Below, one piece after another: positions 34,045 to 37,231 of a stretch of DNA of 64,000 nucleotides (the stretch's first letter is position 1; every line of letters begins with the position of its first letter). The translations under genes were made by a program, and so were the position numbers. The notes beneath the pieces were generated by a model. It made no database searches and was not told the origin of the DNA. It saw only the letters and a program-made list of their open reading frames with translations. The DNA comes from a virus: the IMG/VR virus record IMGVR_UViG_3300045988_160394, positions 32,001-96,000 of that record. The stretch is one strand, 5' to 3'.

Positions 34045-34073
34045 TTTACAAACATAAATAAATTTGATATATT
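34045..34073 (+). promoter_or_regulatory. sigma-70-like promoter candidate for the tRNA/ribozyme cluster
   Basis: TTTACA - 17 nt - TATATT, about 55 nt upstream of first tRNA; such matches are frequent in AT-rich DNA. Confidence 0.3.
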
Positions 34074-34128: not shown

Positions 34129-34247
34129 GCGGGTTTCACGTAGTTTGGTTAGCGTTCTGGTCTTCAAAACCAGTGACAGGCACCATGTTCGACATGCTTT
34201 AATGTTTTGGTTATAAGTCTGCGGGGGTTCGAATCCCTCAACCCGTG
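34129..34247 (+). tRNA. tRNA with anticodon UCA (UGA-decoding, Trp-like anticodon arm), 49-nt insertion in variable region, no encoded CCA
   Basis: Acceptor gcgggtt/aacccgt, D arm acgt/gcgt, anticodon arm ctggt-cttcaaa-accag (anticodon 34164..34166), T arm ggggg-ttcgaat-ccctc. Confidence 0.6.
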
Positions 34248-34317
34248 GTCTCTCATTTAGTAAGCCTCCACGTTGGCGAGAGACGGAAACAAAATTACTA
34301 TTTTGGCTAATTACTAA
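34248..34317 (+). ncRNA. HDV-like (theta-type) self-cleaving ribozyme abutting the tRNA 3' end
   Basis: P1 gtctctc/gagagac, P2 ttagtaa/ttactaa, P3 gcc/ggc with L3 tccacgtt, GG for P1.1, short P4 caaaa/ttttg, J4/2 gCtaa. Confidence 0.8.
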
Positions 34318-34339: not shown

Positions 34340-34966
34340 ATGGAAGGTTATATTTATAAAATAACTAATAGCTTAAATAATAAATGTTATATAGGCAAAA
34401 CATATAAATCTATCCAACAAAGATGGAAAGAACATTTAAAATCCTGTAAAAAAGGAGAATGTTCTAATAGACCTTTATACAAGGCTATTAATAAATACGG
34501 TGTTGGCAACTTTTCTATAGAAGAATTAGGAAAGTTTGAAGAAGGTATTTTAGAAGAAAAAGAAATATATTATATAGATAAATATGATTCATATAATAAT
34601 GGCTATAACGCTACATTAGGTGGAGATGGGAAAAGATATTTCCAATATACCGATAAAGAAGTTATAGATGAATACCTTAAAACTAAAAACTTAAATATAA
34701 CATCAAAATACTTCAATTGTGATGTAGATACTATAAAAAGAATATTAGAATCTAATAGTATCGAAACATTAACAGCTAAAGAATCTATAAAAAATACTTA
34801 TGGAAGAACAGTATTAAAATATTCTTTAGATGAAGAGTTAATAGCTAAATATGAAACAGTTTCTGACGCAGCTAAAGAATTTGATAAAGGCTCTCCTGGT
34901 TCAATATCAAGATGTTGCAGAGGATTAAGAAAGACATATAAAGGTTTCATATGGAGATATTCTTAG
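34340..34966 (+). CDS. GIY-YIG homing endonuclease (I-TevI-like)
   Basis: GYIYKITN...CYIGKT...RWKEH...YNATLGGDG. Confidence 0.85.
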   Translation: MEGYIYKITNSLNNKCYIGKTYKSIQQRWKEHLKSCKKGECSNRPLYKAINKYGVGNFSIEELGKFEEGILEEKEIYYIDKYDSYNNGYNATLGGDGKRYFQYTDKEVIDEYLKTKNLNITSKYFNCDVDTIKRILESNSIETLTAKESIKNTYGRTVLKYSLDEELIAKYETVSDAAKEFDKGSPGSISRCCRGLRKTYKGFIWRYS

Positions 34967-35044: not shown

Positions 35045-35122
35045 GTCTTTCAACTAACAAGCCTCCTCGTGGCGAAAGATGGAAACAGATAGAAGTAAAA
35101 TAATTATCTGGCTAATTGTTAG
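35045..35122 (+). ncRNA. second HDV-like ribozyme copy, just upstream of tRNA-Gln
   Basis: P1 gtctttc/gaaagat (G.U at cleavage site), P2 ctaacaa/ttgttag, P3 gcc/ggc, L3 tcctcgt, P4 agata/tatct, J4/2 ggCtaa; stems co-vary with copy 1. Confidence 0.75.
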
Positions 35123-35129
35123 AAAATAT

Positions 35130-35285: not shown

Positions 35286-35341
35286 CAACTAGATTAAAAT
35301 ATTCTAGTAAAAATATATGGTGTATATATTTGCGATGTAAA

Positions 35342-35434
35342 TAAGATAAAGCTCAGCCAGGTTAGAGCACATGGGTTATTATGAGGCATTGTAATAATAC
35401 TTTGGAGTCGTGGGTTCAAATCCCACTATCTTAT
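35342..35434 (+). tRNA. tRNA-like element with canonical acceptor, D and T arms but 18 extra nt in the anticodon region
   Basis: Acceptor taagata/tatctta, D gctc/gagc, T gtggg/cccac; anticodon not assignable. Confidence 0.4.
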
Positions 35435-35443
35435 TTATATTAA

Positions 35444-35520
35444 TGCGGTATAGCTTAGTTGGTAAAAGCCCTCGATTCATAACCGAGAGATCACAAGTTC
35501 GAATCTTGTTACCGCAACCA
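35444..35520 (+). tRNA. tRNA (CAU): elongator Met or Ile2, CCA encoded
   Basis: Acceptor tgcggta/taccgca, loop ttCATaa; no initiator features. Confidence 0.85.
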
Positions 35521-35530
35521 TTATATTAAA

Positions 35531-35625
35531 GGTTGATTCTCCAGCCTGGAGGTGAGAAGTTGATAAAACACTCACTAAACGCCATAAAAGGTAATCACGA
35601 ATGTGAGCGTGTGATTAACTATTTT
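35531..35625 (+). ncRNA. orphan third copy of the tracrRNA-like scaffold, between two tRNAs
   Basis: ggttgattctccagcct..gtgag..ctcactaaacgcc..gcgtgt collinear with 19721 and 20085 copies. Confidence 0.45.
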
Positions 35626-35663
35626 ATATAGTAGAAGAGTCCCTTATCTTCCTCTATTGTTAT

Positions 35664-35738
35664 GGGAATATAGTACAAAGGTTAGTACAATCGGCTGTTA
35701 ACCGATAGATCCTGGTTCGATTCCATGTATTCCCGCCA
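35664..35738 (+). tRNA. tRNA-Asn (GUU), CCA encoded
   Basis: Acceptor gggaata/tattccc, loop ctGTTaa; one T-stem mismatch. Confidence 0.8.
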
Positions 35739-35840
35739 TTTACTTACTCTCACATATATCATAAATATATAATTAAATTTTTATTCAACAAAAAGTGTGC
35801 ACTTTATTTAACACAATGACATACTTAAACCCCTGTAATG

Positions 35841-35866
35841 AGAAGTCTCGAAAGAGGCTTCTTTTT
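35841..35866 (+). terminator. intrinsic terminator closing the tRNA cluster
   Basis: agaagtctc-gaaa-gaggcttct plus T5. Confidence 0.75.
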
Positions 35867-36406: not shown

Positions 36407-37231
36407 ATGAAAAATGTATGTATCAAATGTGGAAATGAAAACGAAAGAGCTTTCGTAGAAGGAAAATCAGAAGTATTACATGGAGTAACTTATGTTGCTT
36501 GCAAGGCTTGTGGTAACGTAATGCTTAAAATAGAAGGTAGAAAAGGATTATTACCTACACCTGAATATGATTCAATAATAACTAGATTAATGATGGCTGA
36601 CGCAGCTAAAGCTTGTGGATTACCATCTAATGTTGTAGCTATTAATGAAGAAGAATTAGTTAACAAATTCAATGAATATCTTGATTCATTAAAAGAAGAA
36701 AACTTAGAAGATGAATATGAAGATCCATGTGAAGATTGTGATGGTTATGGCGAAGATTGCTATGAGTGTGTATATGGAGATTATGAAGAAGAGGATGAAG
36801 AAGATTCAGATGAAACTATAGATGTAGAAGAAGCTATTTGTGGAGTTATCAACGGAATGATTAAAGCAATAAGATCTTCTTGTGAAGAGAATGAAGAAAA
36901 GACAACTTTAAAAATTAATAAAGACGGCTTTAATGTACAATTTAACGAAGGTAAGCTTAATGCTCCAATAGTATTTGGACCAGTTACAACTCCTGTAATA
37001 GAACCATTTACTTTTGCTAAAAAGCAACAAGCTCAACCAAATACTGTACACAGCACTAAAGAATCTTCTTCTGTATGCTACATGGCTATAACAACTAGTG
37101 GAGAAACTATTGTTAAACATGTAGTTAGTAGAGAATCTTTCTTAGATTACTTAAACAGAAATAGAATTGATGTTAAAGAAATCTATAGATGTGAAAAAGA
37201 AATAGTTAACAAAGAAACTAGATACGTTTAA
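36407..37231 (+). CDS. acidic protein with N-terminal zinc ribbon
   Basis: CIKCG...CKACG; D/E-rich centre. Confidence 0.6.
   Translation: MKNVCIKCGNENERAFVEGKSEVLHGVTYVACKACGNVMLKIEGRKGLLPTPEYDSIITRLMMADAAKACGLPSNVVAINEEELVNKFNEYLDSLKEENLEDEYEDPCEDCDGYGEDCYECVYGDYEEEDEEDSDETIDVEEAICGVINGMIKAIRSSCEENEEKTTLKINKDGFNVQFNEGKLNAPIVFGPVTTPVIEPFTFAKKQQAQPNTVHSTKESSSVCYMAITTSGETIVKHVVSRESFLDYLNRNRIDVKEIYRCEKEIVNKETRYV

Follow-up and report, generated by a model that had tools for sequence, protein, structure and literature searches.

Why would a phage that carries Cas12f guide units beside its cas12f gene keep one more copy of the guide scaffold inside a tRNA operon? We addressed this question in a stretch of phage DNA of 64,000 nucleotides, hereafter called the window, which is AT-rich and has its ORFs almost all on the plus strand. 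The best PDB match of the window Cas12f was AsCas12f (8j12, E=4.5e-69), and the RuvC D/E/D motifs (GIDLG, QMEDL, and NADINA) are kept in the alignment with AsCas12f. Judging from these sequence features, the enzyme is predicted to be catalytically active, and it is the effector that the RNA from the tRNA locus would load. A second cas12f copy was not detected in the window by tblastn. Proteins 96 to 99% identical to the window Cas12f are encoded on metagenomic contigs of 257 to 265 kb, indicating that the carrier is a jumbo phage (~260 kb; gut phage). The next closest proteins (74 to 77% identity) belong to Clostridium perfringens elements of ~50 kb (phage-plasmids), one of which is a circular 54-kb plasmid with capsid genes. 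GenBank phages contained no relative of the window, and their matches were to tRNA genes only.

Two guide units, copies A and B, lie 3' of cas12f. The copy A scaffold with its anti-repeat spans 19718-19845 and is followed by repeats at 19889 and 19955 and a degenerate repeat at 19989. Copy B spans 20081-20234 with its own anti-repeat, which differs from that of copy A and matches the single repeat of copy B (20278-20307); beyond this repeat lie a spacer of 22 nt and a partial repeat. The layout of copy B recurs in two other loci, L010 and L038. For the array spacers of the window, L010, L038, and L002, neither GenBank phages nor the loci that we fetched contained a protospacer.

An earlier reading of the window from its letters alone (the sequence-only reading) had proposed a third copy at the tRNA locus, and this copy, copy C, is real: positions 35528-35637 repeat the scaffold found 3' of cas12f. 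A repeat search joined positions 19712, 20076, and 35522 in one family (43 nt, 77 to 81% identity), and a gapped motif had exactly three sites in the window versus 0 in shuffles. Using an nhmmer profile built from nine cas12f-adjacent scaffolds only, with the tRNA-locus copies left out, we obtained a match at 35527-35619 (39.9 bits, E=2.2e-11) and nothing further in the window beyond copies A and B. Both ARAGORN and Rfam bore out the proposed placement between tRNA-Met and tRNA-Asn. The unit of scaffold and guide, termed the cassette (~136 nt), is 15.9 kb from cas12f, and its boundaries are those of the RNA itself, ~5 nt before the scaffold.

Table 1. Features of the window bearing on the third scaffold copy.
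Feature	Position	Strand	Description
cas12f	18296..19636	+	446 aa; Pfam Cas12f1-like_TNB (1.1e-21) and OrfB_IS605
Scaffold copy A and mini CRISPR array	19718..20021	+	nhmmer E=1.8e-30; Rfam CRISPR-DR3 matches
Scaffold copy B unit	20081..20339	+	nhmmer E=1.5e-34
Promoter-like site	34045..34073	+	TTTACA-17-TATATT with TG; 10/12 matches; consensus match only
tRNA-Met(CAT)	35444..35520	+	ARAGORN and Rfam; CCA encoded; ends 7 nt before cassette
sgRNA scaffold core (copy C)	35528..35617	+	Profile match, 12-scaffold alignment, allele comparison
P1 stem	35530-35535 with 35542-35547		Loop UUCU at 35537-35540
P2 stem	35552-35556 with 35571-35575		
Long-range stem	35579-35583 with 35607-35610		ACGCC with GCGU
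Fused anti-repeat/repeat hairpin	35618..35632	+	Truncated R:AR-1 duplex; ACTAT, loop TTTAT, ATAGT
Repeat 3' tail AGAAG	35633..35637	+	AGAA can pair with P1 loop UUCU
Guide AGTCCCTTATCTTCCTCTATTGTTAT	35638..35663	+	26 nt; ends exactly at tRNA-Asn +1
tRNA-Asn(GTT)	35664..35738	+	ARAGORN and Rfam
Terminator-like hairpin	35840..35863	+	Closes tRNA/sgRNA operon; consensus match only

Searches for the scaffold in IMG/VR and the JGI/ENA metagenomes found only L004, L005, and L006, the last being a near-identical copy of the window. A match in L003 was rejected as a chance match in a GC-rich ORF, and no scaffold was detectable near the Cas12f relative of L001 (54% identity). The motif was found only in elements encoding this Cas12f clade, which leaves the earlier options of a Cas-independent function or a decoy without support.

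We then compared copy C with its homologues. P1 (AGGUUG/CAGCCU) was paired in 98.6% of cells, with UG, GU, and UA at one pair across 12 scaffolds. P2 (GUGAG/CUCAC) was paired in 100% of cells in the 12 homologues, and one of its pairs covaries from G-C to A-U. The sample is small, so the covarying pairs of these helices represent few independent events. The GTGAG...CTCAC stem and the TAAACGCC...GCGTGT element of the sequence-only reading are both present. The hairpin ctcca-gcc-tggag that it also named does form in this copy, but only 53% of cells are paired across homologues; we therefore rejected ctcca/tggag as a conserved helix, the conserved one being P1. An MFE fold of the single sequence gave no useful information on this pseudoknotted RNA (z = -2.5).

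Copy C had been described as carrying a shortened insert. It is instead a second scaffold type and no shortened form of A or B. Its 3' half (TAAACGCCATAAAA...GCGTGTGATT) matches the tracrRNA 3' of cas12f in the C. perfringens loci L004, L005, and L017, and the scaffold type nearest to it is the tracr of L004, L005, and L020. The Cas12f proteins of C. perfringens elements with this C type are 75% identical to that of the window. L002, whose Cas12f is 45% identical to the window protein, has a tracr resembling copies A and B.

The view that no repeat or anti-repeat follows the scaffold was wrong. Comparison with L004 and L020 resolves 35618-35637 as ACTAT-TTTAT-ATAGT-AGAAG. In L004, the anti-repeat CTATAACCTT and the repeat end AAGGTATAGTAGAAC are separate elements: the tracr runs on into the anti-repeat GGCTATAACCTT..., and ...AAGGTATAGTAGAAC forms the 3' end of the 36-nt repeats, after which comes the spacer. 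The L004 counterpart of ACTAT/ATAGT plus AGAAG is CTATAACCTT/AAGGTATAG plus TAGAAC. The window scaffold runs on as AACTAT-TTTAT-ATAGTAGAAG, in which the first nucleotides of the anti-repeat lead through a 5-nt loop to the final 10 nt of the repeat. Both L011 and L013 keep the stem of this fusion hairpin with indels in the loop. Full direct repeats are absent around the guide, which has ~10 nt of the repeat 3' end before it and tRNA-Asn directly after it, with no second repeat.

The pseudoknot between the P1 loop and the repeat tail was 100% paired in 11 scaffold/repeat sets, and two of its pairs covary (UUCU:AGAA in the C type versus UUUA:UAAA in the A/B type). It corresponds to the R:AR-2 element of the AsCas12f guide RNA. 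The distal part of R:AR-1 is the only one whose removal leaves the AsCas12f sgRNA active (bioRxiv 10.1101/2023.07.03.547593), and this distal part is the one absent from the window copy. The same scaffold and repeat parts are fused by another, shorter deletion in L020-L024 (CTATAACCTTGAT-ATA-ATCAAGGTATAGTAGAAC), in which the longer fusion, a 30-nt spacer, and a B-type tracr with its array lie in this order, all by a single cas12f. From this layout, natural tracr-repeat fusion recurs in the clade, and so does the use of both scaffold types by one effector; by the example of L020, we infer that the window Cas12f accepts the C-type scaffold. Taken together, the scaffold type, the repeat remnant, and the pseudoknot make copy C a complete, internally consistent single-guide RNA with a compact natural scaffold of 110 nt. 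The fused guide that the sequence-only reading had listed among its options is thereby strongly supported, as the relatives share the scaffold and carry different guides.

To trace the guide, relatives of the locus were fetched via homologues of the neighboring ORF at 36407-37231, together with contigs encoding an identical ClpP. Four relatives (L012, L014, L016, and L036) have no scaffold and keep their tRNA-Ser genes intact, and the order of the cassette-less locus is tRNA-Met, tRNA-Ser(TGA), a drum RNA with further unassigned sequence, tRNA-Ser(GCT), and tRNA-Asn. Here L014 reads ...GGGTTCA, then AGTCCCTTATCTTCCTCCATTGTTAT, then GGGAATATAG, and the window guide and tRNA-Asn are colinear with it. 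The window guide matches L014 3124-3149 at 25 of 26 positions, and the L032 allele matches at 26 of 26. Thus, the guide consists of the final 19 nt of tRNA-Ser(GCT), which were retained, and of the 7-nt spacer before tRNA-Asn, and what had been noticed as a GC-richer tail is this tRNA remnant. We rejected an origin as an acquired Cas1-Cas2 spacer, since L014 shows that the ancestral sequence at this locus and the guide are colinear; no cas1 or cas2 was noticed among the ORFs that were screened. An exact scan of IMG/VR with the guide returned none, and IMG/VR matches to the tRNA-Ser 3' end (L028 and L029) were set aside as unrelated phages.

Eleven loci carry the cassette in the same place (the window, L011, L013, L015, L030-L035, and L037), with seven scaffold alleles and four guide types among them. 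Every guide is a sense-strand piece of a neighboring tRNA gene, namely Ser-TGA, Ser-GCT (two regions), or Asn. All four types are adjacent tRNA remnants, the intact alleles of which are present in L012, L014, L016, L034, and L036. Type 1 (L034; AATCCCTCACTTTCCACC...) is the 3' end of tRNA-Ser(TGA), with the remaining array intact downstream. Type 2 (the window, L031-L033, L035, and L037) is the 3' end of tRNA-Ser(GCT) with the 7-nt spacer, while type 3 (L011, L013, and L015; AGTTGGTGAAGAGAACACATT...) covers the D-arm to the anticodon stem of tRNA-Ser(GCT). Type 4 (L030) is a tRNA-Asn-like 3' end. Guides of types 2 and 3 are 26 nt and abut tRNA-Asn +1; the type 4 guide is 30 nt and abuts a second tRNA-Asn.

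Presence of the cassette is therefore polymorphic at one locus in close relatives, and the target is disrupted in the carriers. L016 is the most distant relative and is without the cassette, so the cassette-less state is ancestral. L015 combines a cassette identical to that of L011 with a backbone and flanks identical to those of the window; this mosaic is compatible with cassette transfer, and mosaicism is general in this phage group. Cassette state was tied to cas12f on contigs holding both loci, a set that leaves out L012-L016. L011 is on one contig with the cas12f locus L010, and for L031 and L037 the linkage to cas12f is putative, based on contigs of matching length. L036 shares a 265,399-bp contig with cas12f (L038), and hence a cas12f-positive genome without the cassette exists.

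Every self copy of the guide is preceded by GAAG, the repeat tail. Non-self matches to the first 20 nt were found at 18 to 20 positions with a 5' flank of TTCG or TTCA for type 2, 16 to 19 with CTCA for type 3, 16 to 18 with TTCG for type 4, and 16 to 17 with TTCG for type 1. Targets thus differ from guides at 0 to 4 of the first 20 positions, the type 1 and L013 guides being the poorest (16 to 17 of 20). A 1-nt deletion at the type 3 site of L014 shifts the gap-free comparison by one base, so that the flank comes out as ACTC; the sequence itself reads CTCA followed by AGTGG.

To estimate the PAM, we compared the spacers in arrays of the clade with GenBank phages and found three independent natural protospacers in C. 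perfringens phages, with 5' flanks of TTCA, TTCT, and ACCA/TCCA. These three protospacers suggest a YC-type PAM, with C at -2 and a pyrimidine at -3. The tRNA targets (TTCG, TTCA, and CTCA) fit this motif, whereas the cassette's own copy (GAAG) does not. For comparison, the PAM is TTC for SpCas12f1 and YTTN for AsCas12f1 (PMC8548392), and cleavage by Cas12f1 enzymes falls approximately after position 24 of the protospacer (PMC7229846). Of the four junction types, three are located in the universal T-loop (GGTTCRA), a position that may be forced by homology. Recombination between the T-loops of neighboring tRNAs would place junctions there without selection, so only the CTCA site counts as independent evidence for the motif.

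The cassette lies within a tRNA operon, and the promoter-like site upstream of the first operon tRNA is the putative transcription start of the array (Table 1). The same array includes a GIY-YIG gene (34340-34966). Without a promoter of its own, the sgRNA would be co-transcribed with the tRNAs. Release by RNase P and RNase Z had been suggested for this RNA. The first half of this suggestion is plausible: the junction with tRNA-Asn is exact in 10 of 11 loci (identical in L011, L015, and L031-L037), and an RNase P cut at tRNA-Asn +1 would set the 3' end of the guide. In the L034 allele, no tRNA comes directly after the guide. The second half is doubtful. CCA is an anti-determinant for RNase Z, and because tRNA-Met encodes CCA, RNase Z is an unlikely source of the RNA 5' end.

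We propose that 35528-35663 is a natural sgRNA for the phage's own Cas12f, directed at cassette-less sister phages, and we regard the case for this proposal as evenly balanced. The cassette would have displaced the 5' part of tRNA-Ser(GCT), tRNA-Ser(TGA), the drum RNA, and ~300 nt of other sequence, and the guide would be the flanking DNA, i.e., the tRNA-Ser(GCT) 3' end left behind. Because of this origin, the guide matches the uninterrupted allele, and it would aim Cas12f at sister phages that keep that gene. The sister allele would be recognized by the PAM-like TTCR just upstream, and the cassette's own copy, with GAAG, would be spared. During co-infection, Cas12f loaded with the sgRNA would cut cassette-less relatives inside the tRNA-Ser gene. 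As an outcome of this cleavage, the relatives may be excluded, or the cassette may be copied into them by recombinational repair (homing).

Successive deletions might also retarget the cassette, such that later alleles, no longer containing the earlier targets, would cut earlier alleles. This leads to a bolder version that we offer tentatively, as possible at best: an RNA-only, promoter-less "split gene drive" in co-infecting jumbo phages, with a deletion ratchet that moves from Ser-TGA to Ser-GCT to Asn through the tRNA array. Cas12f would then be supplied from 16 kb away, with the sgRNA sitting at its own target site and converting genomes that lack the cassette. The ratchet would be self-propagating, each newer allele being able to cut all older ones and itself immune.

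A doubtful but serious alternative to targeting is that the cassette is a neutral relic. The scaffold would have entered the array once and been carried passively, the guides would be by-products of T-loop deletion, and the RNA would be inert. Entry could have occurred by recombination of a spacer at the cas12f locus with matching tRNA sequence or by illegitimate recombination. The colinearity of the guides with the ancestral array favors a relic, as does the sense orientation shared by all of them, which speaks against targeting and is what simple deletions predict. Junctions in the repeated GGTTCRA motif are likewise expected from a relic. So are L035, which looks like a crossover product (AATCCCT joined to TATC...), the diverged guide of L013, the most diverged of all, in which the downstream tRNA-Asn is disrupted, and the genome of L036, with cas12f and no cassette. 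The scaffold is also conserved barely above its flanks (90 to 94% identity between alleles versus 82 to 90% for neighboring intergenic DNA).

An inert RNA accounts less well for how the alleles vary. None of the seven has lost a helix, the partner in the pseudoknot, or the R:AR hairpin, and their substitutions are in loops and linkers or preserve pairing (e.g., CUAACCU in P1 of L013 and GGAA in the tail of L030). Two independent guide types were both trimmed to 26 nt abutting tRNA-Asn, and the D-arm junction (CTCA followed by AG) is without T-loop homology, yet it carries the inferred PAM. The CTCA junction and this repeated trimming are the only points that argue for something beyond plain T-loop recombination. 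Further against a relic, the boundaries of the cassette coincide with the RNA, and the cassette is the majority state in the sampled close relatives (7 of 8 distinct places).

The remaining alternatives are improbable. A regulatory or decoy RNA would titrate Cas12f, either the phage's own or that of a resident phage-plasmid, or would repress a promoter like tracr-L, a natural Cas9 sgRNA with a regulatory role; the 3' segment would then be irrelevant or only partly complementary to its target. In favor of this reading, the C-type scaffold is the type used by the C. perfringens phage-plasmid Cas12f. However, the guide had no other match in the 64-kb window at ≤3 mismatches, including the region upstream of cas12f, and for this reason we rejected self-targeting or autoregulation of the tracr-L type. 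The guide is also swapped wholesale between alleles and is always tRNA derived, which a fixed regulatory target would not allow.

Targeting of a bacterial tRNA-Ser gene or related locus, for host shut-off or manipulation, is just as improbable: the tRNA-Ser 3' end TCCCTTATCTTCCTCCA recurs in the tRNA-Ser genes of phages that are unrelated, and it could thus be present in a host gene as well, but the guide includes 7 nt of phage-specific spacer, and scanning 185,579 species genomes (GTDB) for exact 19-mers gave three matches, about the number expected by chance, none extending beyond 20 of 26 positions and none clostridial.

Returning to the proposal of an sgRNA aimed at sister phages, we compared it with known systems. 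The closest in scaffold are the tracrRNA:crRNA and engineered sgRNA of AsCas12f and SpCas12f (PMC8548392; bioRxiv 10.1101/2023.07.03.547593), which belong to the same effector clade and have a long multi-stem scaffold. Like the engineered AsCas12f sgRNA, copy C has a short loop capping the anti-repeat:repeat duplex and a repeat tail next to the guide. In contrast to that sgRNA, the fusion here is natural, the RNA gene lies in a tRNA operon 16 kb off, and the 26-nt guide is bounded by a tRNA. Engineered polycistronic tRNA-gRNA arrays share the flanking of a guide RNA by tRNAs and a guide 3' end at the RNase P site; here, the arrangement is natural, and the tRNA upstream encodes its CCA and is separated from the cassette by 7 nt.

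The TnpB omegaRNA (reRNA) of IS200/IS605 elements is the closest in logic. In both, one RNA comprises scaffold and guide, and the guide is drawn from flanking DNA and matches the uninterrupted allele. In the cassette, a putative target-adjacent motif would likewise be replaced in the occupied allele to give self-immunity, and the predicted outcome is homing or retention. Unlike the omegaRNA, the scaffold here does not overlap the nuclease gene and is a CRISPR tracr-repeat fusion with a recognizable repeat remnant; neither LE/RE ends nor a TnpA were seen, and the cassette replaces DNA rather than being a simple insertion. In S. pyogenes, the Cas9 tracrRNA has a natural single-guide form, tracr-L, which acts on the promoter of its own cas genes by partial complementarity. 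This form resembles copy C as a natural single-molecule guide of a class 2 effector and differs in that no own-promoter match was present here.

Two further systems concern conflict between phages. Virus-borne mini-CRISPR arrays (PMC7099407) also provide phage guides aimed at close relatives, although they are repeat-spacer-repeat units with acquired spacers, as opposed to one fused partial repeat with a flank-derived guide. T4 SegB drives inheritance of the T4 tRNA region, i.e., its marker exclusion (PMC13565253, citing PMC2330249). SegB and other free-standing phage homing endonucleases are like the cassette in having as target the tRNA region of a related co-infecting phage, with preferential inheritance of the donor tRNA region as the predicted result. 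They differ in that recognition here would be by RNA and the mobile unit would be a guide gene of ~136 nt, with the nuclease encoded elsewhere. The parts are thus known, i.e., the Cas12f scaffold, single-guide fusion, flank-derived guides, homing at phage tRNA regions, and tRNA-processed guides; full-text literature searches returned no description of their natural combination.

The cassette would be a natural tracrRNA-crRNA fusion for Cas12f, of a kind that arose at least twice in the clade, once in L020 and once at the tRNA locus of the phages. The fusion at the tRNA locus, with its predicted release by tRNA processing, is a design that genome engineers invented independently, and its 110-nt scaffold is a natural minimal sgRNA for an AsCas12f-like enzyme. 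It also links CRISPR-type guides to the logic of the TnpB omegaRNA, with the evolutionary path visible in living sequences. If the targeting proposal is true, the cassette would be the counterpart, guided by RNA, of T4 SegB and similar homing endonucleases, and an RNA gene of 136 nt could act as a selfish or competitive element.

We examined the guide-RNA loci that lie beside cas12f. In the C. perfringens phage-plasmid locus L020, and likewise in L021 to L024, cas12f is followed by a naturally fused sgRNA with a scaffold of the cassette's own C type and a 30-nt spacer, then half a C-type repeat, a B-type tracr and a three-repeat array. For the L020 sgRNA spacer, C. perfringens phages vB_CpeS-1181 and BG3P carry matches at 27 to 28 of 30 positions. 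When the arrays following scaffold A, one of the two tracr copies downstream of cas12f, were compared between the window and the related jumbo phages L010 and L038, repeat number and spacers varied among these otherwise near-identical genomes. The lone spacer 3' of scaffold B, ATGTGCTCTTTTGGCACTAATG, is conserved across the same phages. No protospacer was found among GenBank phages and the fetched loci for the array spacers of these three, the scaffold-B spacer included.

Comparison with cassette-less relatives (L012, L014 and L016) defined the DNA displaced by the cassette, which includes a drum RNA (RF02958, 44.9 bits) and about 300 nt of conserved but unassigned RNA-like sequence between the two tRNA-Ser genes. 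Upstream of the cassette lies a degenerate tRNA-like sequence, called by no tool, with intact acceptor stem and T arm. Its L014 homologue is a called tRNA-Thr(TGT), and in cassette carriers L011 and L013 the homologue, instead of tRNA-Met, sits directly 5' of the cassette. The tRNA-Asn of L013 is interrupted at the anticodon loop by an insert of ~170 nt with both a short remnant of an HNH-like ORF and another tRNA-Asn(GTT) unlike the first; in L030, this second tRNA-Asn follows the cassette.

The window also carries a 119-nt tRNA-like gene (Rfam tRNA match, 47.9 bits; no ARAGORN call), also kept in L013, L014 and L016. Its anticodon loop CTTCAAA holds the anticodon TCA, which would read UGA, and the extra arm is long. 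The gene is a possible opal-suppressor or Sec-like tRNA. RF02682, an HDV-like ribozyme family, has two matches below threshold: the first begins immediately 3' of this gene, and the second stops 6 nt upstream of tRNA-Gln. These could be self-cleaving elements that aid operon processing.

Features of the tRNA array and cas12f loci
Locus	Positions	Feature
Window	19889-20021	scaffold-A array
L010	11595-11930	scaffold-A array
L038	3090-3300	scaffold-A array
L020	2843-3420	cas12f-adjacent locus
Window	34129-34247	TCA tRNA-like gene
Window	34248-34317	RF02682 match (31 bits, E=0.002)
Window	34340-34966	GIY-YIG/NUMOD1 ORF (Pfam 3.2e-9)
Window	35045-35123	RF02682 match (36 bits, E=1.6e-4)
Window	35340-35430	degenerate tRNA-like sequence
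L014	2340-2428	tRNA-Thr(TGT)
L014	2606-3049	displaced DNA
L014	2632-2762	drum RNA
L012	170-520	displaced DNA
L016	2750-3246	displaced DNA
L013	3090-3333	split tRNA-Asn with insert

The two RF02682 matches flank a free-standing, homing-endonuclease-like GIY-YIG ORF on both sides. This ORF within the tRNA array is variable among relatives, being present in L014, L031 to L033 and L037 and absent from L030, L034 and L035; the tRNA-array region is therefore a hotspot for mobile elements of the protein-based kind as well.
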